Assembly (NCBI GenBank): GCA_017466405.1
Contig: JAFTUF010000041.1
Coordinates: 10,119 to 74,118 of the forward strand
Direction: 5' to 3'
DNA from: Bacteroidales bacterium
GTDB lineage: Bacteria > Bacteroidota > Bacteroidia > Bacteroidales > F082
DNA: 64,000 nucleotides
Part shown: positions 8,931 through 38,801 of the stretch, piece by piece
Position numbering within the stretch: the first letter of the stretch is position 1
How the letters are laid out: each line of letters begins with the position of its first letter
Translations under genes and position numbers: made by a program
Notes under the pieces: generated by a model
What the model saw: only the letters and a program-made list of their open reading frames with translations
Told to the model about the DNA's origin: nothing
Databases searched by the model: none

Positions 8931-8936
8931 AAATTT

Positions 8937-16988: not shown

Positions 16989-19793
16989 ATGAGAAAGTTC
17001 TTATTATCGTTATTGATTGTCGTAGCATTCGGCATCAATGCATTTGCCCAAATGGCAATGCCAACTCCAATGGACCCTAACGTAAGATACGGAAAATTGG
17101 ACAACGGCTTGACGTATTACATCCGTCACAATGAAAAACCAGACAACAGAGCTGACTTCTACATCGCTCAAAAAGTAGGTTCTGTTCTTGAAGAAGAAAA
17201 CCAACGCGGTTTAGCTCACTTCCTCGAACACATGGCATTCAACGGAACAACAAACCTTCCTGGAATGACATTGAGAAACTACCTCCAAAGCAGAGGTATC
17301 AAATTCGGTGAGAACCTCAACGCTTACACAGCCATCGACCAAACAGTCTATATGGTGACAGAAGTTCCAACAGACCTCCCTGGTTTAGTTGACACTTGCT
17401 TGCTCATCCTCCACGACTGGTCAAGCTTCATCGCTCTTGAAGAAGAAGAAATCGACAACGAACGCGGCGTTATCCTTGAAGAAGAACGCACAACAGGCGG
17501 TGCTAACAGACGCGTCATGGAACAAATCCTTCCTAAGATGTACCCTGGCAGCCCTTACGGCGAACGCCTCCCTATCGGAACAAAAGAAGTCATCGCTAAC
17601 TTCTCATACCAAGATATTCGCGACTACTATCACAAATGGTATCGTCCTGACCTCCAAGGTATCATCATCGTCGGTGACGTCGATGTTGACGCTATCGAAG
17701 CTCGTATCAAAGAAATGTTCGCCGACATTCCTGCTCCTGTAAATCCAGCAACAAGAACACAATTCATGATTGACGACAACGTTGAACCTATCGTAGCTGT
17801 AGCTTCTGACCCAGAACAAACATCTTATCAAATCATGATGTTCAACAAACACGAAGCAACACCAGACTCACTCAAAAACGACGTCAACTATTGGATGGCT
17901 GAATATATCCTTTCTTTGATTTCAGACATGCAAATCAACAGATTACAAGAATTAGTACAAAAACCTAATCCTCCTTTCGTTTATGGTTACAGCTACTATG
18001 GTGATTACTATGTAGCTCCAACAAAAGAAGCTTGGACAAGCGTTGCTGTAGCTAAAGACGTTGAAGGTATCGACGAAGCTATCACAGCAATCGTTGCAGA
18101 AAACAAACGTATGCAACAATACGGTTTCACAGCATCAGAATATGAAAGAGCAAAAGCCGACTTCATGAAATCTATCGAAAGCGCATACAACGAAAGAAAC
18201 AATACTGAAAACAGCAAACTCGTCGATGCTTGCTTGAACCACTTCTTAAGCAACGAACCAATGATGGGCATCGAAACAGAATATATGCTCTATCAACAAA
18301 TTATGCCTAACCTCCCATTAGAAGCTATCAATGCTTTCGCATCACAGCTCATCACAAACGACAACCTCGTCATTACATTGACAGCTCCTCAGAAAGAAGG
18401 CGAAACACTTCCAACAGAAGAAGAATTGTTAGCTATGTATAACAAAGCCAATGCTATGGAAGTAGAACCATACGAAGAAGAAGTATTCGACGGTCCAATA
18501 GTAGCAGAACTTCCTAAACCAGGTAAAATCAAGAAAGAAGCTGTTAACGAAACATTCGGAACAACAGAATGGACACTCAGCAACGGCATGAAAGTCATAT
18601 ACAAACAAACAACTTTCAAAGACGACGAAATCAGAATGAGCGCTTATAGCCCAGGCGGTTTGACAGCTCTTCCACAAGACGATCCTTACACACTCCAAAA
18701 CTTAGGCGACATCATCACATTAGGCGGCGTTGGCGAATTCAGCGCAATCGACCTTCCTAAAGTTCTCGCTGGTAAGAAAGTAAGCGTAACACCTCAAATC
18801 GGAACTTATTCAGAAGGTATGACAGGTTACTGCTCACCTAAAGACTTGGAAACAATGATGCAACTTATCTATTTGTATTTCACAGCTCCACGCGCAGATC
18901 AGGAAGCTTACGAATCAACAATGGAACGTACAAAAGCTATGTTGAAAAACATGGAATTAAACCCAATGATTACATTCTCAGACTCATTGACAAAAATATT
19001 GTACAACGACCACCCATTGAGATTAAGAATGAAAGTTGAAGACTACGACAAAGTTGATTACGCTAAAGCAATGGAAATGTATGAAGATCGTTTCGCAGAT
19101 CCTAACAACTTCACATTCACATTCGTAGGTAACATCGATGTAGAAACATTCAAACCTCTCGTAGAACAATATTTAGCTTCTTTGAAGAAAAACAAACGTA
19201 AAGAAGACTGGAAAGACGTCGGTCTTAGCGTCGCTGAAGGAAACCACGTAGCTCATTTCACAAAAGAAATGCAAGATCCTAAGACATCTGTCTATATGAT
19301 TTACAACGGCGAAATGGAATATAATCTTTATAACCAAGTTTATATGTCAGTTCTTTCTGACATCATGGACATCGTTTATACAAAGACAATCCGTGAGGAA
19401 CAAGGCGGAACATACGGCGTTGGCGTTATGGGTTATGTAGATAACAAACCAACAGATAACTACATGTTCTACATCGCTTTCGATACAAACGACGAAGTTT
19501 ATGCAACATTGATGGACATCGCTAAGGCAGGTCTTAACGATATAGTAACAAACGGTCCACGTCAAGAAGACCTCGACAAAGTATTGGGCAACAAACTCAA
19601 GAAAAGACAAGAACAACTTCAAGAAAACGGATTCTGGACAAATGTCATCACATCTGAAGTAAGAGACAACATCGACGTATTGACAGATTATGAAAACATC
19701 ATCAATGGCGTTACTGTCGAATCAGTTGCTGAATTCGCAAAACAAATCTTGAACGGTAACTTGAAAGAAATAGTTCAACTTCCAGCTAAATAA
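16989..19793 (+). CDS. M16 family (insulinase-like) zinc peptidase, secreted
   Basis: 934 aa with a signal peptide and the inverted zinc motif HFLEH followed by MAFNGT. Confidence 0.9.
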   Translation: MRKFLLSLLIVVAFGINAFAQMAMPTPMDPNVRYGKLDNGLTYYIRHNEKPDNRADFYIAQKVGSVLEEENQRGLAHFLEHMAFNGTTNLPGMTLRNYLQSRGIKFGENLNAYTAIDQTVYMVTEVPTDLPGLVDTCLLILHDWSSFIALEEEEIDNERGVILEEERTTGGANRRVMEQILPKMYPGSPYGERLPIGTKEVIANFSYQDIRDYYHKWYRPDLQGIIIVGDVDVDAIEARIKEMFADIPAPVNPATRTQFMIDDNVEPIVAVASDPEQTSYQIMMFNKHEATPDSLKNDVNYWMAEYILSLISDMQINRLQELVQKPNPPFVYGYSYYGDYYVAPTKEAWTSVAVAKDVEGIDEAITAIVAENKRMQQYGFTASEYERAKADFMKSIESAYNERNNTENSKLVDACLNHFLSNEPMMGIETEYMLYQQIMPNLPLEAINAFASQLITNDNLVITLTAPQKEGETLPTEEELLAMYNKANAMEVEPYEEEVFDGPIVAELPKPGKIKKEAVNETFGTTEWTLSNGMKVIYKQTTFKDDEIRMSAYSPGGLTALPQDDPYTLQNLGDIITLGGVGEFSAIDLPKVLAGKKVSVTPQIGTYSEGMTGYCSPKDLETMMQLIYLYFTAPRADQEAYESTMERTKAMLKNMELNPMITFSDSLTKILYNDHPLRLRMKVEDYDKVDYAKAMEMYEDRFADPNNFTFTFVGNIDVETFKPLVEQYLASLKKNKRKEDWKDVGLSVAEGNHVAHFTKEMQDPKTSVYMIYNGEMEYNLYNQVYMSVLSDIMDIVYTKTIREEQGGTYGVGVMGYVDNKPTDNYMFYIAFDTNDEVYATLMDIAKAGLNDIVTNGPRQEDLDKVLGNKLKKRQEQLQENGFWTNVITSEVRDNIDVLTDYENIINGVTVESVAEFAKQILNGNLKEIVQLPAK

Positions 19794-19794
19794 A

Positions 19795-19825
19795 TTGAAA
19801 ACTTAAAGTTGAAAGTTGAAAGTTG
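19795..19825. repeat. heptamer array (GTTGAAA)n
   Basis: ttgaaaacttaaagttgaaagttgaaagttg. A reverse-oriented relative lies at 59240-59272. Confidence 0.8.
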
Positions 19826-19873
19826 TAGAGACGTACCAATGTAACATAAAAGCAAACACATTGATGCGTCTCT
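19825..19873 (+). repeat. REP-like hairpin element GTAGAGACG...CGTCTCT
   Basis: gtagagacgtaccaatgt ... acattgatgcgtctct, downstream of the M16 peptidase gene. Confidence 0.85.
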
Positions 19874-19911
19874 ATAGTTAGATTGAATTAATAATTTAAA
19901 ACAATATCATC

Positions 19912-21660: not shown

Positions 21661-21735
21661 TGGAAACTACTGGGGTCGAACCAGTGACCTCCTGCTTGTA
21701 AGGCAGGCGCTCTAAACCAACTGAGCTAAGCTTCC
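21661..21735 (-). tRNA. tRNA-Val (anticodon TAC)
   Basis: Reverse complement GGAAGCTTAGCTCAGTTGGTTTAGAGCGCCTGCCTTACAAGCAGGAGGTCACTGGTTCGACCCCAGTAGTTTCCA folds as a cloverleaf with anticodon loop CTTACAA and T-loop GGTTCGA. Confidence 0.92.
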
Positions 21736-22472: not shown

Positions 22473-22544
22473 CAACCCCGCTGGGAATCGAACCCAGATC
22501 TAAGGAACCGGAATCCTTTATTCTATCCGTTGAACTACGGAGCC
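22473..22544 (-). tRNA. tRNA-Arg (anticodon CCG)
   Basis: Reverse complement GGCTCCGTAGTTCAACGGATAGAATAAAGGATTCCGGTTCCTTAGATCTGGGTTCGATTCCCAGCGGGGTTG. Anticodon loop TTCCGGT; T-arm CTGGG TTCGATT CCCAG. The acceptor stem needs three G-U pairs. Confidence 0.75.
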
Positions 22545-23960: not shown

Positions 23961-23998
23961 AGTTTAATTAAGTTAAATAATAATACAAAGATAATAAA

Positions 23999-24036
23999 AG
24001 TCTAAAGTCGAATGATTAAAGTCTAAAGTTTTTTTT
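23999..24036. repeat. heptamer array (GTCTAAA)n plus T-run
   Basis: agtctaaagtcgaatgattaaagtctaaag tttttttt. Relatives lie at 41741-41764, 47848-47876 and 52529-52565. Confidence 0.8.
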
Positions 24037-24251
24037 GACAACTATCGACTTTTCTTAATACCTATTAATATAATATTCATATTTTCATTAAGATTACGTT
24101 AAAAAGAGATAAAATCGAGATTTTTCTTTATGATGAACTTGACAAAGCGACAAAGACTATTGTAAATTTGCAACAAAAATAAATAACAATTTAGAGAAAG
24201 TTCCGTACATACGCCATTATGTTTTATTGAAAAAAATCATTAATTTTTGTT

Positions 24252-24280
24252 TTTGATTTGTTACAAAATAATTAACTTTG
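24252..24280 (+). promoter_or_regulatory. Bacteroidota-type promoter (TTTG ... TAACTTTG) for RNA copy A
   Basis: The -7 box TAACTTTG at 24273-24280 matches TAnnTTTG. TTTG at 24252-24255 lies 17 nt upstream. Confidence 0.6.
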
Positions 24281-24286
24281 TCGCAG

Positions 24287-24509
24287 ATAAACAAAACATA
24301 ATTTTAATGATATAAAAGGTTTGAAATAGACATATTGAAGTAAGTGTTTGCTTATTGCGAGTGATATTCTGAAAATCGCCAAATTAAAATGAATGACCAC
24401 CGCTGCATTAAGTAAGGCTTCGCACTTTGTGCGGACTTTCTTATTTGCGTGGTCGTGGGCGTTTGGCGATGCCCCAGAATAACGAGTAAGATTGTTTCGC
24501 ACTTTTTTT
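24287..24509 (+). ncRNA. structured RNA / 5' leader, copy A (unclassified family)
   Basis: Conserved core 24320-24509 aligns with 25093-25283. It has nested helices (atcgccaaa/tttggcgat, ttctg/cagaa, gaccac(c)gc/gcgtggtc, cgcac/gtgcg) and ends in ttcgcac + T7. Five compensatory pair changes separate it from copy B. Confidence 0.7.
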
Positions 24510-24539
24510 ATTGTCTAAAATCTAATAAGGAACAACGCC

Positions 24540-24698
24540 ATGACCACTGACGAAATCAAAAACCATATTACCATCTCAGAAGAAACAGAACGTGACAAGA
24601 CCGCTTACGAAAGCAGTGAAGAAATATTCGGAAGGATAACATATTTAGAGACAGAGATTTGTGAAGCCATGTTTGAATTCAAGACCAAGTTTATGTAA
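24540..24698 (+). CDS. small hypothetical ORF (52 aa) downstream of RNA copy A
   Basis: Hand-translated as MTTDEIKNHITISEETERDKTAYESSEEIFGRITYLETEICEAMFEFKTKFM*. The stop lies 1 nt before the next ATG. Below the track length cut-off, with no recognisable motif. Confidence 0.3.
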   Translation: MTTDEIKNHITISEETERDKTAYESSEEIFGRITYLETEICEAMFEFKTKFM

Positions 24699-24699
24699 T

Positions 24700-24969
24700 A
24701 TGGAAGAAATCGCCGAAACTGAAATCAAAGAATTTATTTCAATAATAATTGAAAAGAAGAGGCAGCAGTTAAAAGAATACAACCTCCTCACCCACTCCAT
24801 ATTTCATGAGATGTTCGGCGATTCTGCAGGATTTGAAGGAAGTGATGATAAGAAGAAACAGAATTATTCCGAGATTATTAAATCTATCAACAAGCAGAAA
24901 GAGCTGATAGAAAGGTCGATTGAGTTATTAAAAGTCGCTGAGTCTCCGAGTCTCCGAGTCACCAAGTAA
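24700..24969 (+). pseudogene. hsdS: remnant of a type I R-M specificity subunit (HsdS): conserved coiled-coil regions only, no target-recognition domains
   Basis: From ATG at 24700: ...EKKRQQLKEYNLLTHSIFHEMFGDS... matches the HsdS central conserved helix followed by FxEMFGDP. A second helix QKELIERSIELLK follows. The C-terminus runs into the repeat gtctccgagtctccgagtc. Confidence 0.5.
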
Positions 24970-25022
24970 TTATGGAATTCAGGGACTCGTTTCTGAGGTT
25001 TAAAAATAATATTAAAATTTAT

Positions 25023-25054
25023 TTTGGATTTTAGAATAAAACTAATTACTTTTG
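25023..25054 (+). promoter_or_regulatory. Bacteroidota-type promoter (TTTG-N20-TACTTTTG) for RNA copy B and probably the downstream operon
   Basis: The -7 box TACTTTTG at 25047-25054 and TTTG at 25023-25026. No other TAnnTTTG lies between here and the ATG at 25322. Confidence 0.6.
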
Positions 25055-25059
25055 TCGCA

Positions 25060-25283
25060 AGTAATGAAAAGAGAAATATTATGAAGTAGAATTTTGAAAT
25101 AGACATAATGAAGTAAGTGTTTACTTATTGCCAGTGATGTTCGGAAAATCGCCAAAATGAAGAAATAGTCACTACTGCAATAGGAGATGCTTCGCACCAT
25201 GAGTGCGGACTTTCTTATTTGTGTGACTATAGGCGTTTGGCGATGCCTCCGAATATCAAATAAGGAAGGTTCGCACTTTTTTT
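25060..25283 (+). ncRNA. structured RNA / 5' leader, copy B, immediately upstream of the nine-gene operon
   Basis: Core 25093-25283, paralogous to 24320-24509. Helices agtcac(t)ac/gtgtgact, ttcgg/ccgaa, atcgccaaa/tttggcgat and cgcac/gtgcg. Ends in ttcgcac + T7, 38 nt before the ATG at 25322. Confidence 0.7.
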
Positions 25284-25321
25284 ATTGTGGGTAGTTGTAT
25301 AGAAAAACAAATCTATGTATT

Positions 25322-26674
25322 ATGGAAAAAAGATTTTTACTTGCTTTTTTGCTCATCATCCTTGCAGCTGGATGTAGCAGAAATCCGTCTCGGCAAAGCA
25401 GTGGTAGAGAAAATGTTGAGACAAAAGAAACACTAGAATTAGTTGAAAAAACGGATGTGGAAAATCCAGTAGTTAAACCCACACTCAAAGTCAAACCTGT
25501 AGTAAATATCTACATTGAGAATTCTGGTAGTATGAATGGATTTATAAATAAAACGTCCGAATATCAGGATGCTATTCAAAATATGGTAGTATGGTTAGAA
25601 TACTATTACGATACCGATAATATCAAACTACATTATATCAACGAGCGTGTCATTCTTAAAGAAAAACCAGTAAGTATACCTTTACCAGACTTTGCACAAC
25701 AAATGCTGTCTCCTGTAGAATTTAAATCAAATGGTAATGGCGCATCAACTAATCTTAATAGTATAATAGCGATGATATTAGATCGTACTGACGATAATAC
25801 AATATCTATATTGTTATCAGATAACATTTATTCTATTTCGGGTTCACAAACAGCACCTGTGTTGTTAGCTGAATGTAAAAATAAAACATTACAGGCTTTC
25901 TTGGGAAAAAGCAAGGAACTGAATATGCAACATCAACAAGCTTTATCCACAACAATCATTCAACTACATTCTCAATTTAGTGGTAATTATTGGGATTATA
26001 AACATCCTACTGGAAAAGCATCTCAACAGTTGAATTGTAAGAGACCTTATTATATGTGTGTTATTGGAGTTAATGATTTGATTTCTGATTTTAACAACAA
26101 ATTTAATGTCAATGAAATGAATGGTTACAGAAACAAATACACATTAACAGACATGGAAGAGTTGAATCCTAAATATGGTGTGCTAGTAAACACATATAAG
26201 ACAGGTAGATTTAGGAAAGTAAATGACACAACAATAAGAGAAGCTTCATTAGATGGACGTAAAAACATTTTTGCCTTGGCGATAGCTGTTGATTTGAGTG
26301 AAATACCTCTGAATGATGATGAAAAATGTGATACACGTTTATTTGAAGCAACAGAAGATTATGATATAGAGGAAATTATAAAGATAGATGATGCAACAAT
26401 ATCTCCAGTTGATATGCAAGTGACCAAGAATTGCACACACATAATAAAGGTTTCTACATCAAATAAAACTATTCCTGGTTTTACATTAAAAATGAAAAGA
26501 TTGTTGCCAAATTGGGTGGAAAATACATCATCTGTAGATGATACAAAAATAGGAACTGATACTGAAGAACAAAAACGGACATTTGGTTTAGCATACTTCG
26601 TCAATGGAATAAAAGAAGCATACGACAAAGGAGCTGATAATTATTTTGAAATTAACATTACAGTAAACAAATAA
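25322..26674 (+). CDS. lipoprotein with vWA-like domain (operon gene 1)
   Basis: Start taken at MEKRFLLAFLLIILAAGC (lipobox LAAGC). VVNIYIENSGSMNGFI resembles the vWA beta1-MIDAS motif DxSGSM with E for D, and ISILLSDNIYS resembles the vWA TDG strand. Confidence 0.6.
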   Translation: MEKRFLLAFLLIILAAGCSRNPSRQSSGRENVETKETLELVEKTDVENPVVKPTLKVKPVVNIYIENSGSMNGFINKTSEYQDAIQNMVVWLEYYYDTDNIKLHYINERVILKEKPVSIPLPDFAQQMLSPVEFKSNGNGASTNLNSIIAMILDRTDDNTISILLSDNIYSISGSQTAPVLLAECKNKTLQAFLGKSKELNMQHQQALSTTIIQLHSQFSGNYWDYKHPTGKASQQLNCKRPYYMCVIGVNDLISDFNNKFNVNEMNGYRNKYTLTDMEELNPKYGVLVNTYKTGRFRKVNDTTIREASLDGRKNIFALAIAVDLSEIPLNDDEKCDTRLFEATEDYDIEEIIKIDDATISPVDMQVTKNCTHIIKVSTSNKTIPGFTLKMKRLLPNWVENTSSVDDTKIGTDTEEQKRTFGLAYFVNGIKEAYDKGADNYFEINITVNK

Positions 26675-26684
26675 AAATAAGATT

Positions 26685-27110
26685 ATGATACAAGATTTTA
26701 TTGCAAACATTTACGAACTATGGGGAGCCGCTTATTTTGAAGGTTTCTCTGATGATATGTACAATATCAACGCCTATTTACCTATATTTTTATGGATGAT
26801 TATTTCCATAATTGTTGTAAGTGTAACATATTATTACATAATAAATCATTCGAGATTAAATCGGTGGTATTGGTGGGGATTATTTAATTTGGTCACATCG
26901 TTGTTGAATTTTGGGATAGCATGGGGAGCATCTCATGGAAAATTATTGGATTTATATAATAGTCAAAATATGGATTTCCCATATTCTGCGATGATAGAAT
27001 TTTTCCCATTTGCAGTTATCTGCTTTTGCTGGACATTCGTACTATATTTTGTCTTCTCTATGGTTATAAAATGGGGAAGTAAAAACTGTAAACATTCACC
27101 GTTTTTGTAA
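26685..27110 (+). CDS. small integral membrane protein, 3 predicted TM segments (operon gene 2)
   Basis: 141 aa. Hydrophobic stretches YLPIFLWMIISIIVVSVTYYYII, WYWWGLFNLVTSLLNFGIAWGA and FFPFAVICFCWTFVLYFVFSMVI. Confidence 0.7.
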   Translation: MIQDFIANIYELWGAAYFEGFSDDMYNINAYLPIFLWMIISIIVVSVTYYYIINHSRLNRWYWWGLFNLVTSLLNFGIAWGASHGKLLDLYNSQNMDFPYSAMIEFFPFAVICFCWTFVLYFVFSMVIKWGSKNCKHSPFL

Positions 27111-27127
27111 TTAAAAAAAGTAAAGAT

Positions 27128-28534
27128 ATGAGTAAAGTTTATGTATTTGGAATAGGAGGAACGGGTTCTCGTGTATTGAGATCCTTAACTTTGTTATTAG
27201 CATCAGGTGTTGATTGTGGTAACGACACAATAGTTCCCATAATTATTGATCCAGATGCTTCTGGCGGTGATTTGACAAGAACTGTCTCTCTGATGAGATG
27301 TTATAGTGATATAAGAAAACAACTTGTTTTTGATGGAACAAGTCAAAATGAGTTTTTTAAAACGGAGATAGATCAAGTTGTTCCCGGTTTCCAGTTGCCG
27401 TTAGATAATAAAGTACAAACATTGAAATTTCAAGATTATATGGGAGTAAGTTCTATGACTTCTAATAATCAATGCTTGATGTCAATGTTGTTCTCCGATA
27501 AAAACCTGAGTGCAAATATGAACGTCGGTTTTAAAGGGAATCCAAATATTGGTTCTGTTGTTTTAAATCAGTTTTCTCAATCAGAGGATTTCAAAGCATT
27601 TGCGAACAACTTTCAACAAGGCGATAGAATATTTATTATTAGTTCTATATTTGGAGGAACAGGAGCTAGCGGTTTTCCATTGTTACTTAAAACATTACGT
27701 AGCAATACAAACATTCCAAATTTTGCTTTAATCAACAATGCCATAATAGGTGGAATAACTGTTTTGCCTTATTTTAATGTAAAACAGGATAATAGCAGTG
27801 AAATTGATTCAACCACTTTCATATCAAAAACAAAGTCGGCATTGGCTTATTATGACAAAAATATAAGCGGCAACAATTCTATAGATGCACTATATTATGT
27901 GGCGGATGATATCAATAATGCTTATGATAACCATGAAGGTGGAGGAAATCAAAAGAATGATGCACATATGGTTGAGCTTATTTCAGCCTTAGCTATAATA
28001 GATTTCGTTAATAATATTAACAACAGAATAAATCCAACAATACATAAAGAATTTGGAATTAAAGATTTGCAAAATGGGGCTAATGATGTAATTCTTTCAG
28101 ATTTTGCAAAAGGAACCGAAGATATAATTAAAGATTCTTTGATAAGTATGTTCCTTTTTGCAAAATACAACAATAATTGTTTGGAAAAACAATACGAACA
28201 CCAGCCATGGGCAATAGACAGAAAACTGGATAGAGCGTTCTTTAGAGGCAGTTTCTACAAAAATATAGAAATGATTCAGACTGATTTCTTCGCTTGGTTA
28301 GGGGAATTATCATCTAATAAAAGAAAACTTACCATGTTTGAATTAGGTGATGACTGTGAATTGTTTAAATCAGTTAAAGATTATTCTCCCAAAAAGAGCT
28401 TTGGATTCACAAAAAATTATGCGTTGATTGACAAATGCCTTAATAAACAAGTCCAAAGCGGAACGAATAAGGAACAATTATACATAAACCTATTCTATAG
28501 TGCTTTAAAAGAAGTCGTATCACTAAAATTCTAA
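27128..28534 (+). CDS. tubulin/FtsZ-superfamily-like GTPase (operon gene 3)
   Basis: 468 aa. N-terminal VYVFGIGGTGSRVLRSL matches the FtsZ T1 G-box position. SSIFGGTGASGFPLL is close to the tubulin/FtsZ T4 signature GGGTG(S/T)G. No TM and no FtsZ-type C-terminal tail recognised. Confidence 0.7.
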   Translation: MSKVYVFGIGGTGSRVLRSLTLLLASGVDCGNDTIVPIIIDPDASGGDLTRTVSLMRCYSDIRKQLVFDGTSQNEFFKTEIDQVVPGFQLPLDNKVQTLKFQDYMGVSSMTSNNQCLMSMLFSDKNLSANMNVGFKGNPNIGSVVLNQFSQSEDFKAFANNFQQGDRIFIISSIFGGTGASGFPLLLKTLRSNTNIPNFALINNAIIGGITVLPYFNVKQDNSSEIDSTTFISKTKSALAYYDKNISGNNSIDALYYVADDINNAYDNHEGGGNQKNDAHMVELISALAIIDFVNNINNRINPTIHKEFGIKDLQNGANDVILSDFAKGTEDIIKDSLISMFLFAKYNNNCLEKQYEHQPWAIDRKLDRAFFRGSFYKNIEMIQTDFFAWLGELSSNKRKLTMFELGDDCELFKSVKDYSPKKSFGFTKNYALIDKCLNKQVQSGTNKEQLYINLFYSALKEVVSLKF

Positions 28535-28538
28535 AGTT

Positions 28539-31500
28539 ATGTCTAAAGTTTTCAGATTACATCAGGATAATAATACATTGATTGATTGGCAGCAATCACA
28601 ACCATATAGCACCAATGTTATAAATCAGATAAAAGACCCTAATGGAGCTACTTCAAGAAATGAAATCACTTCAATACCATCACCATTCGCAAGAATAGAC
28701 CTGGTAAAAAGTGCGTTTAAAGAAGTGAATATGTTAGGTCTTGACGGTAATACAATTTACCATAAAATGGTGTCAGATAGTTTGGACATTGGGCAAATAT
28801 TCTTTAATTATCCAAAATTTAAGAATCTTGTAAATGTTGTTTTTTGGGATAAGACTAACGATTTACAAGCTTTAAAGCAATCGACAATAACATCTCATAG
28901 AGTTGTTGGAGAAACACTTGAGATGTATATGCAACAAGATGGCAGTACATATAATTTCAATAATATGCAAAGAATATATATGCTGCAATACATTGGACCT
29001 CAATGCAAGATAAATGATATTATTGGTGCGACATCTCCATGCACATTGTTTTTTAGTTCCGCAAATGATTTATCAAGAATCTCAAATTACATATCCTTTG
29101 ATGGTAATGACAAACCATTTGACAACCAATATCAACCTTTATATAAACGTGATATTGAATATGTCAAATATTTATGTGCTTTAAGAGCATCTTATCCAAT
29201 GTTTGCTGTTGAATTTTCAGAAGTCAATGAATATATAAATCTTACAATAAATAAATTAGGACAAGATATAAATAATCAGGGATTTATTAATCAAATTAGC
29301 ACTTTTGATACTAGTACAATAAATAATTATACCAAACTAGTTGTTAATAACAATAACATTGATGTAATAAATGGCATAACATTATGTGAAGTGCCAAAAG
29401 TTCATGTAAAAAGTGATTTTGAGATTAATTCCACGATATTTGCAGGTGAACAAAAGCCGTTAGTTTTACCGGTTGAAAAAGGCAATCAATATTCTTCGTT
29501 GACTTATACATCTACAGTTTGGAATCCAAACAATTCAGCCCCGTATTTTGACGGCAATCCGTTGGCAAGAAGGACTTTGCCTTCCACAAGTGACGCTCAT
29601 CCATATCTCACAATTAGCGATTTCTTAGAAGATAACATCATTAAGATGCCTTATCGTATGAATGAAAAGGATTATTATGATGGTGGCTTTAACGCAATTA
29701 GTGATGAAAATGAATCATATTTATTGCCATTGAAGAAATTATTTTTTGATTTCTTTACGGTCGACGAGTTATTAGGGACTCTTCCTAACGGACAAAAGAT
29801 GTTCGAGTTTAGAAGTAATGCAGGAGGTATTACTGTAATTTTACGAATTCCTATTCAGAAGAACTATTGTGTTGAGTATAAAAGGATTTATTTGAACAAT
29901 AGTATTGCAGATATTTCAAAGAACTTAGGTGGTGTTATAATCAAGAAATTTGGTCTTGGTATTTTGCCACCCGTTAAGACAGATAATGAACTTTCATATT
30001 ACAGAATAGCGTTATTTGATAAAGGTGATAACAATATTACCTTAACACCATGCATGGGAAAAGATTCTGTTGCTGCTATCAATGTTGTTCATACTCCCAA
30101 AACAAATAAAACATCTGGCGTGGAATCATACATCATTGATAAACATTCTTTTGATAGGATTGAAGTATCAGTTGGTTCAAATATGGCAGTTTTGGTTCCT
30201 ATTTTAAGATCTGCGGTTGGAAATAGGAAATTTACTATTGCCATTGACTTTGGAACTACTAACACTCATATAGAGTACAGTAAAGACAATAATCCATCTT
30301 CTTCATTCTATATCAATACAAATGATATTCAAATCTCAAGATTACATATTGATTATACAGACATTGATATTGATACGTCATTCGACAGATATTTTATTCC
30401 TTCTGTAATTGACGGAGTCGAGTATGGTTATCCAATGAGAACTGTTCTTGCCGAAAGCAATTCAATTAGTTATAATAAACCGGTGTATTCAATGGCTCAT
30501 GCTCATGTTCCATTTAAATATGAGAAAGAAGCTTGTTCAAGATATTATTCTATTAAGACTAACTTAAAATGGTCTAACGAAGAAAGGAAAAGGGTTGAAT
30601 TATATATAGAAAATATTGTTATATTGTTAAGGAACAAAGTTTTGTTAAATGATGGAGACTTATCAAAGACCCAAATTAAATGGTTTTACCCGACAAGTAT
30701 GGTGCAGTATCAGATTGATGGACTGAAGAGAATATGGTGTGACCTATACAAAAAATATTTTGGTAGTGATGTTCAGAATGTTATTGGAATTCCAGAATCG
30801 ATAGCACCTTACAAATATTACAAAACTACACAAGGAGCTCAGTCTAGCGTATTAACAATTGATATTGGAGGTGAAACCAGTGATGTATTTGTAGTTGAAG
30901 ATTCAAAAGCAAAAATGATGTCATCTTTCCGTTTTGCGTCAAACGCAATTTTTGGAGATGCATTCGGATATAATTCTGATAATAATGGTTTCGTATTAGG
31001 GTATCTTGATAAATTCAAAACTATACTTAATGATAATGGATTAAACACATTATCAAATGCTCTTGATGATATTGTAGTTCAGAAAAAATCATCTGACATA
31101 GTTGCATTTTTTTATGCTTTATCCAATAATAAAGAGGTCAAGAAGAAGAATATCACAGCATTGGATTTTCAAGATAAATTATCCAATGACGATTGTTTGA
31201 AATATGTGTTTGTGATGTTCTATACTTCCTTGCTGTATTTTATCGCAAAAGAAATGAAATCAAAGGGACTTAGAATGCCATTGACGATAGCTTTTAGCGG
31301 AAACGGTTCAAATTCTATAAAGATTCTCTCCAATGATACTGTAACATTAAAGAAATATGCACAGATGATATTTGAAGATGTGTATGAAGAAAAATATGCA
31401 AAGGGAGAAATGTTAGATGTAATTTGTGAAGAAAACCCTAAAACCGCAACGTGTAAAGGTGGAATTCTAACAAACAACGATGATGTTGACTTTGATACAG

Positions 31501-31868
31501 ATGAATTAAAATACAATTTGTTAGGAATCAATGCTGTTGATACTATTGACAGTTTTAAGTATAGTGATGTTGACAATAATATCATAAATAAGGTTGTAAA
31601 TCAAGTGGAATCGATGATTGACTATGCCTTGTCTCCTGATAAAATCAAATTTTATATAAAATATTTTGGAGTTAATCAAGGTAAGTCAAATTCCATCAGC
31701 GAATTGACAAAAATTAAACTTCATGAATATGCAAAATCAGCATTAGATGCAAGAAAAGAAGAACTCAAAACATGGAATGCTGATGAAACTTGCAGCTTAG
31801 AAGAAACATTGTTCTTCTATCCTATAATCGGTATGTTAAACAATCTTGCAAGAGAAATAACAAAATAA
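28539..31868 (+). CDS. 1109-aa protein: unknown N-terminal half plus C-terminal actin/Hsp70-like (ASKHA) ATPase (operon gene 4)
   Basis: FTIAIDFGTTNTHIEY (phosphate-1, compare DnaK IDLGTTNS), VLTIDIGGETSDVFVV (phosphate-2 DxGGGTxD) and LTIAFSGNGSNSIKIL (adenosine motif). The first 550 aa or so have no recognisable motif. Confidence 0.75.
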   Translation: MSKVFRLHQDNNTLIDWQQSQPYSTNVINQIKDPNGATSRNEITSIPSPFARIDLVKSAFKEVNMLGLDGNTIYHKMVSDSLDIGQIFFNYPKFKNLVNVVFWDKTNDLQALKQSTITSHRVVGETLEMYMQQDGSTYNFNNMQRIYMLQYIGPQCKINDIIGATSPCTLFFSSANDLSRISNYISFDGNDKPFDNQYQPLYKRDIEYVKYLCALRASYPMFAVEFSEVNEYINLTINKLGQDINNQGFINQISTFDTSTINNYTKLVVNNNNIDVINGITLCEVPKVHVKSDFEINSTIFAGEQKPLVLPVEKGNQYSSLTYTSTVWNPNNSAPYFDGNPLARRTLPSTSDAHPYLTISDFLEDNIIKMPYRMNEKDYYDGGFNAISDENESYLLPLKKLFFDFFTVDELLGTLPNGQKMFEFRSNAGGITVILRIPIQKNYCVEYKRIYLNNSIADISKNLGGVIIKKFGLGILPPVKTDNELSYYRIALFDKGDNNITLTPCMGKDSVAAINVVHTPKTNKTSGVESYIIDKHSFDRIEVSVGSNMAVLVPILRSAVGNRKFTIAIDFGTTNTHIEYSKDNNPSSSFYINTNDIQISRLHIDYTDIDIDTSFDRYFIPSVIDGVEYGYPMRTVLAESNSISYNKPVYSMAHAHVPFKYEKEACSRYYSIKTNLKWSNEERKRVELYIENIVILLRNKVLLNDGDLSKTQIKWFYPTSMVQYQIDGLKRIWCDLYKKYFGSDVQNVIGIPESIAPYKYYKTTQGAQSSVLTIDIGGETSDVFVVEDSKAKMMSSFRFASNAIFGDAFGYNSDNNGFVLGYLDKFKTILNDNGLNTLSNALDDIVVQKKSSDIVAFFYALSNNKEVKKKNITALDFQDKLSNDDCLKYVFVMFYTSLLYFIAKEMKSKGLRMPLTIAFSGNGSNSIKILSNDTVTLKKYAQMIFEDVYEEKYAKGEMLDVICEENPKTATCKGGILTNNDDVDFDTDELKYNLLGINAVDTIDSFKYSDVDNNIINKVVNQVESMIDYALSPDKIKFYIKYFGVNQGKSNSISELTKIKLHEYAKSALDARKEELKTWNADETCSLEETLFFYPIIGMLNNLAREITK

Positions 31869-32641
31869 TGAGTATGAGAAAAGTAATAATATGTATGTTG
31901 ATGGTTTTTGTTTCCATAACAACAATATCTTGTGGTAAAATTAGTCGAAAGGATAAAGTAACACATCCTTCGGAACAATTAAAACAAAAATCAAGAAAAT
32001 CAGAGTCTGGTAATAACCATTTCCTATTGTGGAGCGCATTGATTATTTCTTTGTTTGCTAATGCTGGTTATACCTATGTTTTGTATAACAAAACAAAAGA
32101 ACGTACAGAATCTAGATTACAGAGGTTGAGGAATAATGTCGATAAGTTGGAAAATGATTTTATTTTAGAAAAATCACAACAACATGCAAGAGAAACCACT
32201 CGTAATGGCAGTTCTACTCGATACACATTGATAGACGGCGATATAAACTTAATTGTTGACAGAGTACTTGAATGCATAAACATTGACAAAACCCATGAAA
32301 ATACTTATGATGATGTGGGTAAAAATCCACCGCAACCCAAAACGATAAAGAAATTATATGCCGAAGCAGCTAACAAAGATAATGAGTTTTTTAGAAAGGT
32401 TACAGAATATCAAAGTGAAGACACAATTTATGTTTTGTCATTGATAGATGATAACCGTGCTGAATTTGTTATATGTGATAGCGCCAAAAGCACCATTATA
32501 GGTTGTGAGGATTATTTAAGGAATGTTTGCGATATTATAGGTAGCGGACGCAATATTGAAAATTGTGAACCGGGTATCGCCCAAAAAACAAGCGATGGTT
32601 CTTGGAAGGTTATCGAAAAAGCTAATGTAAAATTCGTGTAA
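31868..32641 (+). CDS. membrane/lipoprotein-like protein with coiled-coil segment (operon gene 5)
   Basis: The ATG at 31868 overlaps the TAA of gene 4 (TAATG). MSMRKVIICMLMVFVSITTISC is a signal/lipobox. Second hydrophobic segment FLLWSALIISLFANAGYTYVLY, then a charged helical region. Confidence 0.6.
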   Translation: MSMRKVIICMLMVFVSITTISCGKISRKDKVTHPSEQLKQKSRKSESGNNHFLLWSALIISLFANAGYTYVLYNKTKERTESRLQRLRNNVDKLENDFILEKSQQHARETTRNGSSTRYTLIDGDINLIVDRVLECINIDKTHENTYDDVGKNPPQPKTIKKLYAEAANKDNEFFRKVTEYQSEDTIYVLSLIDDNRAEFVICDSAKSTIIGCEDYLRNVCDIIGSGRNIENCEPGIAQKTSDGSWKVIEKANVKFV

Positions 32642-32642
32642 A

Positions 32643-34379
32643 ATGGGACACTATTTAATAATAGGAATCATCGTTTTGCTAATTATTGGAGTTCAGATAT
32701 ACTTCTTTAGCAAAACATCAAAAGAGATAAGAAAATTCTCTAACATTTTTCCTAAATCAACAGACAACTTGTATGCTCATGATTCGGAAATTTATGTAAG
32801 AGATTATGAAAATAAGATAGATTACGATATAGATGATAAACTTGATAAATATATCAAGAAACATGATTCAGTTTTTGAAAGAATAATATCGAGCTTAAAT
32901 ACTTATTTGCGAAAAAATAAAGGCGCTGCAAGCGACTATCATCTTATGAAAGATATAGTTGAAAGAAACTGTGATGCCAAAGAAAATGAAATAGATACTC
33001 AAATTCCGACTCCATTATATACAGGTTTGATGGGAACTGTTTTAGGAATCATTGTCGGTGTTGCATTCTTACTTTTTAGTGGTGGATTGTCAGCTTTGTT
33101 GGATAGCAATTATGATTTGATCAATAGCACAACAAATGTAAATGAGATTGTAGGCAGAGAATCTGCACAAGATATTAAAGATGAACATATAATCATCATT
33201 AAAGAAGGTGAATTGATAGATTCTGAACATAAAGCTAGCAAATTGATTGATTATGCGAAGAGAAATAATACCGAAATAAAATTAAAGTCAGATAATTCTG
33301 GAAGTAAAGGTGTTTCAGCTTTATTGAGTGGTATTGCATTAGCAATGATAGCTAGTTTTGTTGGGATTTTGCTTACTACAATAGCGTCATATCGTTTTAA
33401 AGGAGCAAAAAGCAAGGAAGAAGAAGGCAAAGATAAATTCTTAAGTTGGATTCAATCGGAATTGTTGCCGCAATTATCATCCGATGTTTCAGGTACCCTC
33501 GTGAAAATGGGGCAGAATCTCAGAGATTTTAACACTACATTCTCTGAAAATACAAAAGAACTCAGTGCAACATTAGACAAGGTAAATGAATCGTACAGAG
33601 GTCAAGCTGAAGTACTTCAGTCAATAAAAGAATTGAGAATAAATGAAATAGCCACTGCAAACATCACTATTTATGATAAGTTAAAAGATAGTACTCAAGA
33701 ATTAGGAGATGTAACACAACATATTTCAGAATATTCAGAGCAGTTGTCAAAACTTGGAAAGTATCTAAAGAATTCTGAAAAATATCTGATTCAAGTTAAA
33801 GAACTTAACGAGAAACTTGATGAAGGTGAAGAAAGAATGAAAATGATAGAACGACTTGGACAATTCTTTGAGACTGAATTACAACAAATTCAAAATAGAA
33901 AGTCGGAAATGACAAAGGCTGTCGGTATTGTTGATGATGCATTACAAGAAGCTTTAATAAAGATGCAGGAAAATGTCGGCAGACAATTCAATGAACTTGA
34001 AAAATCATCTGCTATACAACAAGACATTCTGCAAGAAAAACTTAAAGAAACGACTGCACTTGTTGATGAACTGAAAAATCTCACAGCAGTTAAAGCAAGT
34101 TTGGATAAAATTGAGAAATCAACTGAAAAAACATCGAATGAGCAAAATAAACGTTTGGACACACTTATATCATCAATAAATATATTAACGTCTGAAATCA
34201 AGAAAGGTAATTCTGTAAATATAGGATTTAATAGCGGTGGTGCTCCCGTAGTAACTAAAAAAATGCCTAAATGGGCAAAAGTGCTGTTAATAATAGGCGG
34301 CTCTTTAGTAAGTCTTACTTGCTTGATAATAATATCTGTTATAGTTCTAAAAGTCCTAAAAGATATAAATATTATTTAA
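32643..34379 (+). CDS. MotA/TolQ/ExbB-like ion-channel protein with long coiled-coil tail and C-terminal TM anchor (ZorA-like; operon gene 6)
   Basis: 578 aa. PLYTGLMGTVLGIIVGVAF and GIALAMIASFVGILLTTIASY resemble the two conserved MotA/ExbB helices (GLLGTVxG; A-x-x-T-T-x-x-G). About 270 aa of heptad-rich sequence follow, then MPKWAKVLLIIGGSLVSLTCLIIISVIVL. Confidence 0.65.
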   Translation: MGHYLIIGIIVLLIIGVQIYFFSKTSKEIRKFSNIFPKSTDNLYAHDSEIYVRDYENKIDYDIDDKLDKYIKKHDSVFERIISSLNTYLRKNKGAASDYHLMKDIVERNCDAKENEIDTQIPTPLYTGLMGTVLGIIVGVAFLLFSGGLSALLDSNYDLINSTTNVNEIVGRESAQDIKDEHIIIIKEGELIDSEHKASKLIDYAKRNNTEIKLKSDNSGSKGVSALLSGIALAMIASFVGILLTTIASYRFKGAKSKEEEGKDKFLSWIQSELLPQLSSDVSGTLVKMGQNLRDFNTTFSENTKELSATLDKVNESYRGQAEVLQSIKELRINEIATANITIYDKLKDSTQELGDVTQHISEYSEQLSKLGKYLKNSEKYLIQVKELNEKLDEGEERMKMIERLGQFFETELQQIQNRKSEMTKAVGIVDDALQEALIKMQENVGRQFNELEKSSAIQQDILQEKLKETTALVDELKNLTAVKASLDKIEKSTEKTSNEQNKRLDTLISSINILTSEIKKGNSVNIGFNSGGAPVVTKKMPKWAKVLLIIGGSLVSLTCLIIISVIVLKVLKDINII

Positions 34380-34380
34380 T

Positions 34381-35058
34381 ATGAAAAAGAATAAAAAAGA
34401 ATCATTCTTTTGGACAAGCTATTCAGATTTGATGACCAGTATGTTTTTTATAATGCTGGTGTTGTTTGTTGTTACAGTAGCCTTGCTTCACAAGGAAATG
34501 GTCAAGATTGGTGAGGAAAGAGAGGCAATGCGTATTGAGAGAGATATTACGCAGGCACAACTTGATAAGATAAAAGAAATTCAGGAGGCAACACAAACCA
34601 TTGATACCACATACTTTAGATTCGATAAAAATTTTAATAGACATACGTTGAGAAACATAACAGTCTCTTTTAATAGATCTAGTTCTAACATAAACGACAT
34701 TCCTCAAGATGTTAGGAATACTTTAGCCGAAGCAGGAAAAGCAATAAGAGAATCTTTGTTAGAAGCACAAAATAAAACTCCGGAAGCAAAATTTTTACTG
34801 ATAATTGAAGGTCAAACATCAAACGATGGTTATGTTGCTAATTACGAGCTCAGTTATAGCAGAGCCCTAAGTCTTGTGAAATTCTGGTCAAGTCAAAAGA
34901 TTTATTTTGACGAAGCAGGTGGTATACATAATTGTGAAGTTATTATTTCAGGTAGCGGAAGGTCTAGTCAATTTAGAGAATTGCCTGATAACAAATATAA
35001 TACTAAAAATCAAAGATTTGTAATTCATATCATTCCAAAGCCGGGAGAAATAAAATGA
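34381..35058 (+). CDS. MotB/OmpA-like stator partner (ZorB-like; operon gene 7)
   Basis: 225 aa. N-terminal FWTSYSDLMTSMFFIMLVLFVV is the MotB-type TM plug with the conserved Asp. C-terminal LLIIEGQTSNDGYVANYELSYSRALSLVKFW is an OmpA-like peptidoglycan-binding motif. Confidence 0.78.
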   Translation: MKKNKKESFFWTSYSDLMTSMFFIMLVLFVVTVALLHKEMVKIGEEREAMRIERDITQAQLDKIKEIQEATQTIDTTYFRFDKNFNRHTLRNITVSFNRSSSNINDIPQDVRNTLAEAGKAIRESLLEAQNKTPEAKFLLIIEGQTSNDGYVANYELSYSRALSLVKFWSSQKIYFDEAGGIHNCEVIISGSGRSSQFRELPDNKYNTKNQRFVIHIIPKPGEIK

Positions 35059-35810
35059 TAAAGAAACTGATATTATGCATTTGCGTACTAGTGCTTTTCT
35101 TTTCTTGTGTAAGAAGACGAGAAGGAGTACATAACTCCAATTCAAGAAATCATTATGCTCAAGAACGAGTTAGAACAAGTAGTAATAGACACAAACCGGT
35201 GAGAACACAAGAAACCAGTCCGATTCAACCTGTAAATAGGGCGGATAACAAAATATTAAATGGTTCTCAGATATTTGAAAAATACAACCCTGCAGTTTTT
35301 ATGATTTTTACTTCTGACGGGTGGAACGATTATCAAGGTTCTGGCTTCTTTGTCACGTCATCTGGAATTGGTGTTAGCAATTATCATGTTTTTGAAGGTA
35401 CGACAGTCGGGTATGAAACAATTAAATTATCAAATGGACAAACATATAAAATAAGAAATGTCATCGCTAAGAGTAAAGATGATGATTTCATTGTGTTTCA
35501 GGTAGAATCTAAAGGAGTTTCGTTTAAATATATACCTATGGGAATAAAGAATCCAAAAGTAGGCGAAAAAGTCTATACAATAGGCAGTCCGTTAGGTTTG
35601 GAAAACACATTCTCGTCAGGAGAAATTTCACAGTTGAGAGAGGATAATTTAATTCAAATCAATGCTCCTATAGATCATGGCAGTAGTGGTGGTGCACTTA
35701 TAAATGAATATGGAGAAGTCATTGGCATTACTACAGCAGGCATAGGAAGTTCAGGAGCAAACCTAAATTTTGCAGTTGATATTGATGTTGTGAGACCGTA
35801 TGTGAGATGA
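35055..35810 (+). CDS. lipoprotein trypsin-like (S1/DegP-fold) serine protease (operon gene 8)
   Basis: ATGA overlap with gene 7. Lipobox LVLFFSC. Catalytic triad context SNYHVFEG (His), DDDFIVFQV (Asp) and DHGSSGGALIN (Ser). Confidence 0.82.
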   Translation: MIKKLILCICVLVLFFSCVRRREGVHNSNSRNHYAQERVRTSSNRHKPVRTQETSPIQPVNRADNKILNGSQIFEKYNPAVFMIFTSDGWNDYQGSGFFVTSSGIGVSNYHVFEGTTVGYETIKLSNGQTYKIRNVIAKSKDDDFIVFQVESKGVSFKYIPMGIKNPKVGEKVYTIGSPLGLENTFSSGEISQLREDNLIQINAPIDHGSSGGALINEYGEVIGITTAGIGSSGANLNFAVDIDVVRPYVR

Positions 35811-36418: not shown

Positions 36419-36443
36419 TATTCGTGGATAAAATCCATTAGGG

Positions 36444-38748: not shown

Positions 38749-38782
38749 CAATTTACAATTGACAGTTTACAATTAACAATTA
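38749..38782. repeat. TTGACAA-family heptamer array
   Basis: caatttacaattgacagtttacaattaacaatt. Confidence 0.75.
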
Positions 38783-38801
38783 AATAAATCAGAATCTATC
38801 T

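Follow-up and report, generated by a model that had tools for sequence, protein, structure and literature searches.

A putative terminator/antiterminator leader RNA family carried by prophages and genomic islands of Bacteroidota

The window analyzed in this work, a 64,000-nucleotide (nt) stretch of DNA from a Bacteroidales bacterium (contig JAFTUF010000041.1, assembly GCA_017466405.1), carries two copies, A and B, of a structured leader RNA. Rather than being a local pair of paralogues, these copies belong to a large family: about 170 instances of the element, of which more than 110 are distinct, were found across many families of Bacteroidota, in a few metagenome-assembled genomes of Kiritimatiellia and Lentisphaerae and in more than 100 IMG/VR contigs. 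In our opinion, the element is probably a cis-acting terminator/antiterminator leader, representing a new and widespread family borne by mobile elements. This reading is based on the covariation of its helices, on the predicted competition of a long rod and an intrinsic terminator for the same RNA segment, on a 9-bp helix of constant sequence, and on the position of the element between a promoter and an open reading frame (ORF).

Two leader copies in the window and their architecture

The presence of two paralogous structured leaders had been proposed in an earlier reading of the sequence alone (further, the sequence-only reading), and the comparison of the copies located them at positions 24233-24514 and 25008-25288. 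Approximately 280 nt, including the promoters, can be aligned with the mean column identity of 85% (83% and 90% for the repeat families D7 and D10). The covariance model of the family matched copy A at 24328-24512 with 205.7 bits and copy B at 25101-25286 with 199.7 bits, and these were its only matches in the entire 64 kb. The minimum free energy (MFE) on the + strand was -62.5 kcal/mol for copy A and -67.9 kcal/mol for copy B (z-scores of -4.4 and -5.8; none of 200 shuffles was as good), being poorer on the - strand (-45.6 and -50.2 kcal/mol, respectively). The -7 boxes, as well as the ttcgcac motif with a run of seven T residues ending at 24509 and 25283, were found where they had been reported, and the ATG codons at 24540 and 25322 follow the ends of these T-runs by 30 and 38 nt.

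The conserved core comprises about 185 nt, and the leader, counted from the inferred start site, which in copy A probably lies near 24287-24290, about 220 nt. In the 5' to 3' direction it consists of the GACAUAUU box, the hairpin P0, the lower rod (helix H1, loop GAAA, helix H2, an asymmetric A/U-rich loop facing GGCG, and helix H3), the upper hairpin formed by segments 2 and 3 (2:3), the returning strands, the tail and the U-run. In Bacteroides-type members the GACAUAUU box is located 4-5 nt past the -7 box, where the RNA probably begins. The elements of both copies are as follows.

24233..24514, + strand: whole unit of copy A (promoter, leader RNA and U-run), by pairwise alignment with copy B
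24246..24280, + strand: copy A promoter with upstream TTTG repeats and -7 box TAACTTTG (24273-24280), by sequence
24329..24336, + strand: copy A conserved box GACAUAUU, a conserved column block of alignments A3 and A7
24339..24356, + strand: copy A 5' hairpin P0, AGUAAGU-GUUU-GCUUAUU, 85-92% paired, with double changes in 7/7 pairs
24365..24383, + strand: copy A 5' strand of the lower rod, comprising H1 UAUUCUG, loop GAAA and H2 AUCGCCAAA, by family alignment
24395..24403, + strand: copy A 5' strand of H3, GACCAC(C)GC (helices 5-7), with four compensatory changes relative to copy B
24409..24425, + strand: copy A segment 2, 5' strand of the upper rod (antiterminator strand), UAAGUAAGG-CUUCGCAC (helices 8-11)
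24429..24445, + strand: copy A segment 3, 3' strand of the upper rod, GUGCGGAC-UUUCUUAUU, the partner common to segments 2 and 4, by covariation and duplex energies
24447..24454, + strand: copy A 3' strand of H3, GCGUGGUC, by covariation
24458..24481, + strand: copy A 3' strand of the lower rod, comprising GGCG, H2 UUUGGCGAU (24462-24470), GCCCC and H1 CAGAAUA, by family alignment
24484..24509, + strand: copy A segment 4, tail GAGUAAGAUUGUUUCGCAC (24484-24502) and U7 (24503-24509), by 3:4 duplex energies
25008..25288, + strand: whole unit of copy B, by pairwise alignment with copy A
25022..25054, + strand: copy B promoter with upstream TTTG and -7 box TACTTTTG (25047-25054), by sequence
25102..25129, + strand: copy B box GACAUAAU (25102-25109) and P0 (25112-25118 with 25123-25129), by covariance model
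25138..25156, + strand: copy B 5' strand of the lower rod, comprising H1 UGUUCGG, GAAA and H2 AUCGCCAAA (25148-25156), by covariance model
25167..25228, + strand: copy B upper part, comprising H3 (25167-25175 with 25221-25228), segment 2 (25181-25197) and segment 3 (25203-25219), by alignment, fold and covariance model
25232..25255, + strand: copy B 3' strand of the lower rod, comprising GGCG, UUUGGCGAU (25236-25244), GCCUC and the 3' strand of H1, by covariance model
25258..25283, + strand: copy B segment 4, tail AAAUAAGGAAGGUUCGCAC (25258-25276) and U7 (25277-25283), by sequence and fold

The motif CTTATT, taken initially for a single partner of two competing segments, actually occurs twice per copy; in copy A it is found in the 3' strand of P0 (24351-24356) and in the upper rod (24440-24445).

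Covariation of the helices and the strand that folds

RNAalifold found 13 covarying pairs in a plain MAFFT alignment of 65 sequences and recovered H1, H2 and the tip hairpin. In the 69 members aligned to the covariance model, 94.3% of the cells were paired, compared with 68.4% in shuffled and 33-44% in slid alignments. Double-sided changes were present in 38 of the 48 pairs (819 cells; 6 of the 7 pairs in H1), and the observed covariation score was reached by none of 500 shuffles. Between the window copies, four double changes preserve the pairing of H3, GACCAC(C)GC/GCGTGGTC (24395-24403 with 24447-24454) being replaced by AGTCAC(T)AC/GTGTGACT (25167-25175 with 25221-25228), and a fifth compensatory change converts TTCTG/CAGAA to TTCGG/CCGAA. 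All five had been listed in the sequence-only reading, which proposed a search for covariation in homologs as a check; the family alignment demonstrates that the helices do covary far outside the two copies. Among the wobble and mismatch cells, G-U and U-G pairs (268) strongly prevail over A-C and C-A (27), an asymmetry indicating that it is the + strand that folds, as RNA, and that the element is not a symmetric DNA palindrome.

The rod and the predicted terminator are mutually exclusive

The tail preceding the U-run nearly duplicates segment 2 and shows complementarity to segment 3. The 3:4 and 2:3 complementarities were tested by duplex energies, a procedure that does not depend on any alignment. 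For the 3:4 duplex the mean energy was -22.6 kcal/mol with the cognate and -11.2 kcal/mol with a non-cognate partner (segment 3 taken from unrelated members), the cognate one falling within the top 5% in 55 of 62 cases; the respective values for 2:3 were -21.0 and -12.4 kcal/mol. The control pairing 1:4 gave no signal in the duplex energies, and the alternative pairing of the 3' strand of P0 with the 5' strand of the upper rod, i.e., with segment 2 (1:2), was weakly supported. The helix formed by the tail and segment 3 reaches the U7 run, and U-rich runs are found throughout alignments A3 and A5. The cognate specificity of 3:4 together with the U-run thus points to a conserved predicted intrinsic terminator competing with the upper rod, and, since helices 2:3 and 3:4 share segment 3, the rod and the terminator should be mutually exclusive. 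By comparative analysis both predicted folds are shown to be under selection. The duplicated TTCGCAC and AGTAAG motifs, which had led to the initial suggestion of a switch or attenuator, turn out to be parts of this conserved, co-varying terminator versus antiterminator alternative, and the suggestion itself is supported by the comparative analysis.

Unconstrained MFE folding of 101 distinct members yielded the rod in 96 and the terminator in 4 of them, so that the rod, presumably the read-through state, would be the thermodynamic ground state according to the folding model. When GAAAAUCGCCAAA was made unpairable, the terminator appeared in 50 of the 101 members at the mean cost of 9.3 kcal/mol; with the same block, the MFE fold of copy B turned to the 3:4 terminator, the small hairpin GGC[GUUUGGCGAU]GCC included.

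A lower-rod helix of constant sequence

The 9-bp helix H2, AUCGCCAAA/UUUGGCGAU, is unchanged in 69 of 69 sequences of the model alignment. As the search patterns themselves fixed H2, the sampling was repeated without reference to it, through the relatives of a gene for a 163-aa lipoprotein that precedes the element in Bacteroides-type prophages. The RNA was located about 70 nt past this gene in 40 of 65 loci, and all 16 distinct sequences of this sample retain AUCGCCAA(A/U)/UUUGGCGAU, while H1, H3 and the upper rod vary. A query with the 3' core alone likewise returned the 5' partner GAAAATCGCCAA(A/T) in nearly all true matches. The long-range helix described as invariant on the basis of the two copies is constant in a much wider sense, even across phyla. 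The constancy of H2 beside freely covarying helices suggests sequence-specific recognition, and H2 with its flanking loops (GAAA, GGCG, GCCUC) is the candidate sensor of the element.

The second conformer is supported by one more pair of positions. In several lineages, including those of alignment A7 and copy 2 of locus L032, GGCG...GAUGCC changes to GGUG...GAUACC, both positions together, and U-G intermediates exist. The GGC and GCC positions (24458-24460 and 24471-24473 in copy A) flank the 3' strand of H2; they could close a small alternative hairpin around UUUGGCGAU and would pair only when H2 is open.

Position of the element between promoter and gene

Of 108 distinct members, 84 have the Bacteroidota -7 motif TAnnTTTG at a distance of 30-170 nt upstream of H2; a region of equal size after the element contains it in 5 of the 108. 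In 93 of 99 cases an ORF on the same strand starts within 250 nt past the U-run, the median gap being 50 nt and some gaps about 10 nt. Gaps that short leave no room for a separate promoter, which implies that the downstream genes are transcribed through the element. The promoter upstream and the same-strand ORF downstream, noticed originally in the window copies, are thus properties of the family at large, and three signs of an attenuator are observed in it, namely leader placement, a predicted terminator helix ending at the U-run and an exclusive alternative helix, both helices being conserved. A leader-peptide attenuator was considered as well and rejected: the ORF after H2 comprises 8 codons in copy A and 3 codons in copy B, close relatives such as L039 have no ATG at this place, and none of these ORFs is conserved.

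Proposed mode of action and alternative explanations

We propose that each copy forms a promoter-proximal leader for the genes transcribed after it and would act as a two-state transcription attenuator. In the read-through state the RNA would form one long rod, in which H1, H2 and H3 clamp the upper 2:3 hairpin; the tail and the U-run would be left without a hairpin, and RNA polymerase would proceed into the ORF 30-38 nt further on. In the termination state segment 3 would pair with segment 4, abutting U7 and forming an intrinsic terminator, the released 3' strand of H2 would fold into the small hairpin closed by GGC/GCC, and a short RNA of about 220 nt would be produced. Because the rod is presumably the ground state, a trans-acting macromolecule is favored as the trigger: by capturing one strand of H2 or the small hairpin, it would cause termination. 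This direction of regulation, from binding to termination, is suggested by the folding model. A suitable effector would be a protein, or a factor associated with RNA polymerase, that occurs in all host phyla. The promoter and the leader together would make up a portable cassette for driving accessory genes borne by prophages and islands, chiefly those for exported surface proteins and for defense. More tentatively, and with considerable doubt, the element may be regarded as a sensor RNA of the orphan type, representing a new class of riboswitches or else the RNA component of an RNA-protein antitermination system. Through it a common cellular signal would be imposed on mobile cargo in Bacteroidota and some PVC bacteria (prophage morons, surface lipoproteins and adhesins, restriction and other defense systems, and the Zorya-like/tubulin-like operon of the window), with AUCGCCAAA/UUUGGCGAU as the receptor.

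Several observations weigh against the attenuator. The block of the 5' strand of H2 in silico flips only half of the members, copy A not being among them; the loop of the predicted terminator, about 40-45 nt, is unusually large; and the calculated stability of the rod is such that switching requires kinetic control or a strong binder. Termination and read-through at the U-run are predictions from sequence and folding. The gene behind the first copy of locus L051 lies on the opposite strand. The first downstream genes match 36 unrelated Pfam families, and with no common pathway among them there is no obvious signal to sense; nor did clustering of the ORFs within about 5 kb of the element reveal a linked regulator gene, only prophage backbone genes having emerged. 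Finally, the main alignment of 69 members was fitted to the model, and most members were gathered with patterns fixing the H2 core; both circumstances are mitigated by the MAFFT/RNAalifold result, by the alignment-free duplex energies and by the sample chosen via the protein gene.

Among the alternatives, a riboswitch, in which a small molecule (a second messenger or a global metabolite) flips the two-state leader by binding to the lower rod, seems unlikely. Second-messenger riboswitches do precede heterogeneous sets of surface-protein and phage genes, and a core conserved across phyla next to a usual terminator/antiterminator expression platform would suit this explanation; yet the conserved nucleotides make up a plain Watson-Crick helix with small loops, devoid of a junction or pocket, the gene set has no metabolic theme, and no aptamer of Rfam matched. 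Quite unlikely is processive antitermination or the loading of an elongation factor, whereby the rod, or the non-template DNA of the core, modifies RNA polymerase or recruits a NusG paralogue, so that the polymerase would pass the terminator of the leader as well as those within long foreign operons. The horizontally acquired genes and long operons (about 10.5 kb in the window; several downstream ORFs exceed 1000 aa), the invariant core suggestive of recognition by a universal machine and the terminator within the leader, as in LoaP-controlled leaders, are in line with it. The core GGCGUUUGGCGAUG may also loosely resemble ops (GGCGGTAGCGTG). Many targets, however, are single short genes of 80-170 aa, for which processivity is needless, no NusG-like gene is linked to the element, and the co-variation of the tail with segment 3 would be left unexplained. 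An independent small RNA gene, whose terminated product of about 200 nt acts in trans, transcription of the genes behind it being incidental (the immunity RNA of the P4 CI / P1 c4 type being a special case), appears very unlikely to us. The element does possess its own promoter and a terminator-like end and occurs in prophages, the above-mentioned L051 copy lacks a same-strand gene behind it, and a second AUCGCCAAA site, a possible target, is present in some mRNAs; but this site was found in only 9 of 123 members, all belonging to Prevotella and Alloprevotella, the 93 same-strand ORFs out of 99 follow the element directly with no promoter in between, and Rfam C4 and other phage RNA families gave no match.

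There are also rearrangements at the DNA level that bear on the nature of the core. Loci L106 and L109, found in different IMG/VR samples, are exact chimeras that match L066 upstream and L095 downstream at 100% identity; the junction falls within GGGCGTTTGGCGATGCCT, the Mrr gene is replaced by an HSDR_N nuclease gene, and H1 is left mismatched. Cargo has thus been exchanged at the conserved core, which seems to act as a recombination joint between phages. In L242 (approximately 2971-3160) an exact reverse complement of the 3' arm (GGTATCGCCAAACACCTGACAGCCCACAAGGAAAATGCCCACG) stands in for the 5' arm, and the rest up to the U-run is deleted, which is consistent with template switching or with inversion and deletion at a palindrome; in effect, it is a natural deletion mutant before the same nuclease gene. 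These chimera junctions and the rearranged arm, together with tandem units that have different genes behind them and resemble a cassette array, would speak for a DNA-level element, i.e., for the quasi-palindrome with the inverted repeats ATCGCCAAA/TTTGGCGAT being a recombination site of the attC or inverton kind. We regard this as extremely improbable, since G-U pairs far outnumber A-C pairs and only one orientation is seen among about 170 instances. Such a site would have no use for a promoter, a U-run, a co-varying tail or a set polarity of the ORFs, the core is unlike the R boxes of attC, and no recombinase is linked to it, the integrase of prophage L065 being located 2.3 kb away, beyond the cargo. 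The chimeras and L242 look like by-products of a conserved quasi-palindrome. An inverton in particular was rejected: all full-length instances have one orientation, judging by their G-U content, and L242 is the sole aberrant contig, both rearranged and deleted. The cis-acting terminator/antiterminator leader remains our preferred explanation.

Distribution of the family

Scanning of one genome per GTDB species for GAAAATCGCCAAA-N65-95-TTTGGCGATGCC gave 64 loci. The Bacteroidota hosts include Prevotella, Alloprevotella, Segatella, Bacteroidaceae, Mediterranea, Alistipes, Rikenellaceae, Muribaculaceae, Butyricimonas, Odoribacter, Paludibacter, Azobacteroides, Lentimicrobiaceae, Fluviicola, Roseivirgaceae and Lewinellaceae. 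IMG/VR contributed well over 100 further instances. The model R1, built from 12 close relatives, recovers all instances and revealed additional tandem copies in L032 and L051. BLAST searches against GenBank phages and PLSDB plasmids returned nothing useful.

The element is also carried by five metagenome-assembled genomes of Kiritimatiellia and Lentisphaerae, members of the Planctomycetes-Verrucomicrobia-Chlamydiae (PVC) group. These versions are GC-rich and lack the Bacteroidota promoter box, and thus look host-adapted and not like an artifact of binning. In L003, L012, L047 and L050 of this group the tail is followed by a U-rich run that pairs with a stretch rich in purines (e.g., AAAAGAAAGG) immediately before the start codon; this extra hairpin could mask a ribosome-binding site.

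As suggested by the sequence-only reading, the fold belongs to no named RNA family: at the gathering thresholds of Rfam 15 no match was obtained for the element in the window and 18 further loci, and at E<=10 the matches for the window, L065 and L047 were of chance level only. No description of the element was found in full-text literature searches by core sequence and by topic, in Weinberg 2017, in the 50-genomes paper or in the B. thetaiotaomicron transcriptome paper; the family has apparently not been described so far.

The second 5' strand of H2 mentioned above lies in the mRNA downstream of the U-run in Alloprevotella (L001, L011, L030, L054 and L063) and Prevotella (L010, L016, L026, L031 and L037). 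In Alloprevotella it includes the 5' strand of H1 too (GUUCCUGAAAAUCGCCAAA), and in several of these loci the site is complementary to the member's own 3' strand of H1. In L001, L030 and L063 short tandem repeats of variable length (of the GAGTACA and ACTCACT/ACTAACT types) are located between the U-run and the second AUCGCCAAA site, before a gene for a helix-turn-helix (HTH) protein. A search for trans targets of the core inside the window gave 15 matches, 14.7 being expected by chance.

Genes behind the element

The products of the first downstream genes are very diverse. They include BspA-type leucine-rich repeat (LRR) proteins, outer-membrane proteins, a Bor-like lipoprotein, proteins with a type IX secretion system (T9SS) tail and an S8 peptidase; those related to defense comprise HsdM, HSDR_N-type nucleases (phrog_4225), Mrr, BrxA, DNA methylases and MADS-system proteins. 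RodA, a penicillin-binding protein and HTH proteins were found as well. An N-terminus resembling a signal peptide or that of a lipoprotein was predicted in 61% of 92 distinct first products, compared with 12-15% in a crude ORF background. No link specific to defense was revealed: the PADLOC matches were few, and defense genes are only part of the cargo. In L065 the genes for a tail protein, an Amidase_3 endolysin and the 163-aa lipoprotein, in this order, precede the RNA, and those for an HSDR_N nuclease, a lipoprotein and a tyrosine integrase follow it; this is where morons are classically situated in a temperate phage. In distant relatives of the L065 prophage (L246, L251, L253-L255, L256-L258, L259-L261 and L265) the place of the leader is taken by a different small unit. 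It begins with a promoter and a short hairpin, continues with UUGCGUUGAA(A/U) and closes with a terminator hairpin and U-run, after which the direct repeat TTTGTTGCT-N5-TTTGTTGCT comes. Such units may represent a further family of leaders or small RNAs.

In the window the leaders are followed by two sets of genes, and the segment that contains them is bracketed by tRNA and tmRNA genes.

24540..24969, + strand: genes behind copy A, encoding 52 aa (24540-24698) and 89 aa (24700-24969), by ORF prediction
25322..35810, + strand: operon behind copy B, about 10.5 kb, by ORF prediction and domain searches
21661-21735 and 22473-22544, - strand: tRNA genes, bracketing from the left the 24-36 kb segment with the leaders and the operon
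36443-36842, - strand: tmRNA gene, bracketing the same segment from the right

Both ORFs behind copy A are conserved at the protein level in L032 (2703-3085, - strand), and the 89-aa ORF in L044 as well (47-74% identity); similarity of the 89-aa product to Type I HsdS is weak and falls in the central helical region. The operon behind copy B encodes a lipoprotein of 450 aa, a membrane protein of 141 aa, a tubulin/FtsZ-like protein of 468 aa (Pfam Tubulin at 4e-5, below the cut-off), proteins of 1109 aa, with no family match, and 257 aa, a ZorA-like MotA/ExbB protein of 578 aa, a ZorB-like protein of 225 aa and a trypsin-like protease of 251 aa. It may represent an undescribed conflict system, Zorya-related or cytoskeletal. 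A retron msr-msd or another RNA associated with a reverse transcriptase was rejected, no reverse transcriptase domain being present in the window operon or in the downstream genes. The same two-leader layout is found in L032, and one leader precedes the same operon in L034; at least the first operon genes recur in both. No integrase was seen between the tRNA and tmRNA genes. The layout is typical of an island at a tRNA or tmRNA hot spot.

Other repeats of the window were noted. A 60-nt repeat, made of AAAGTCTAAAGTC motifs and closing with a T-run, is dispersed over 23975-24034, 41716-41775 and 52505-52564; the first of these is situated between divergent genes immediately before copy A, where a TAnnTTTG box on the minus strand faces a gene for a 446-aa secreted protein. 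Shorter dispersed repeats of the AATTGACAGTTGACAATT and ACATTGATGCGTCTC types are present at 8905-8951, 19793-19839, 38750-38796 and 53547-53593, and at 9023-9065 and 19858-19900. Two tandem units of about 2 kb, 72-91% identical, occupy 45852-49650 and look like a paralogous gene pair.

Comparison with known systems and significance

Like the protein-dependent attenuators (BglG/SacY-RAT, PyrR, TRAP and HutP leaders), the element sets a leader terminator against an alternative helix and has a short conserved RNA site as the likely dock for a factor. It has no sequence or structural homology to them, no linked regulator and unrelated targets, and is mainly borne by prophages and islands; moreover, its conserved site is a 9-bp helix clamping a rod of about 130 nt, and not a small hairpin overlapping the terminator. 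With the riboswitch and T-box platforms it shares a 3' segment duplicating an upstream strand, covariation of both folds and the U-run just before the ORF, but it has no recognizable aptamer or specifier, its regulon is incoherent, and it has no match in Rfam at E<=10. The elements of processive antitermination (HK022 put, EAR, LoaP leaders, RfaH ops/JUMPstart) similarly head acquired or surface-structure operons and phage genes in cis, and in the LoaP leaders a conserved hairpin is combined with a leader terminator. These elements, however, are smaller and have other folds, and the Rfam families EAR and JUMPstart did not match; here the co-varying switch of terminator strands dominates, and many targets are single short genes.

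The phage immunity RNAs (P4 CI with seqA/seqB/seqC and c4 of P1/P7) are prophage-borne leaders too, in which one segment is complementary to two others and transcription ends prematurely. There a processed small RNA acts on repeated sites controlling phage replication or antirepressor genes, whereas in our case the three segments are contained in one 185-nt leader, the genes behind are cargo, and there is no sequence match. 6S RNA is comparable in size (about 185-200 nt), in the largely rod-like shape, in wide distribution and in having its own promoter and terminator; the element differs in lacking a large central bubble and in the tail that competes with the rod, and neither 6S nor 6S-Flavo of Rfam matched. 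Identity with 6S RNA was thus rejected, in view of the small internal loops, tandem copies, occurrence in prophages, variable genes behind the element and the lack of RF00013 or RF01685 matches. Finally, integron attC sites resemble the element as imperfect palindromes with a conserved core, a variable but structurally conserved center, different neighboring genes and exchange at the core; unlike them, the element lies upstream of genes together with a promoter and U-run, displays the G-U asymmetry, has a core unrelated to RYYYAAC/GTTRRRY and is not accompanied by IntI.

Bacteroidota dominate the human and ruminant gut. To our knowledge, few cis-regulatory RNAs of this phylum have been described beyond the classic riboswitches. 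The family reported here is abundant, strongly supported by covariation and absent from Rfam 15, being distributed over many Bacteroidota families, two PVC classes and more than 100 viral contigs. The element heads genes that decide phage resistance and cell-surface identity, such as restriction enzymes, BREX and Zorya-like systems, BspA-type LRR proteins, outer-membrane proteins and lipoproteins, and its cargo includes prophage morons situated between the lysis genes and the integrase. The conserved core appears to be a joint at which cargo is swapped between phages. The 9-bp core could be used as a bait for the effector, and the leader is a possible portable regulatory part for Bacteroides engineering. 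If the proposed mechanism is true, a shared switch of this kind would constitute a previously unseen layer of control over lysogenic conversion and defense.

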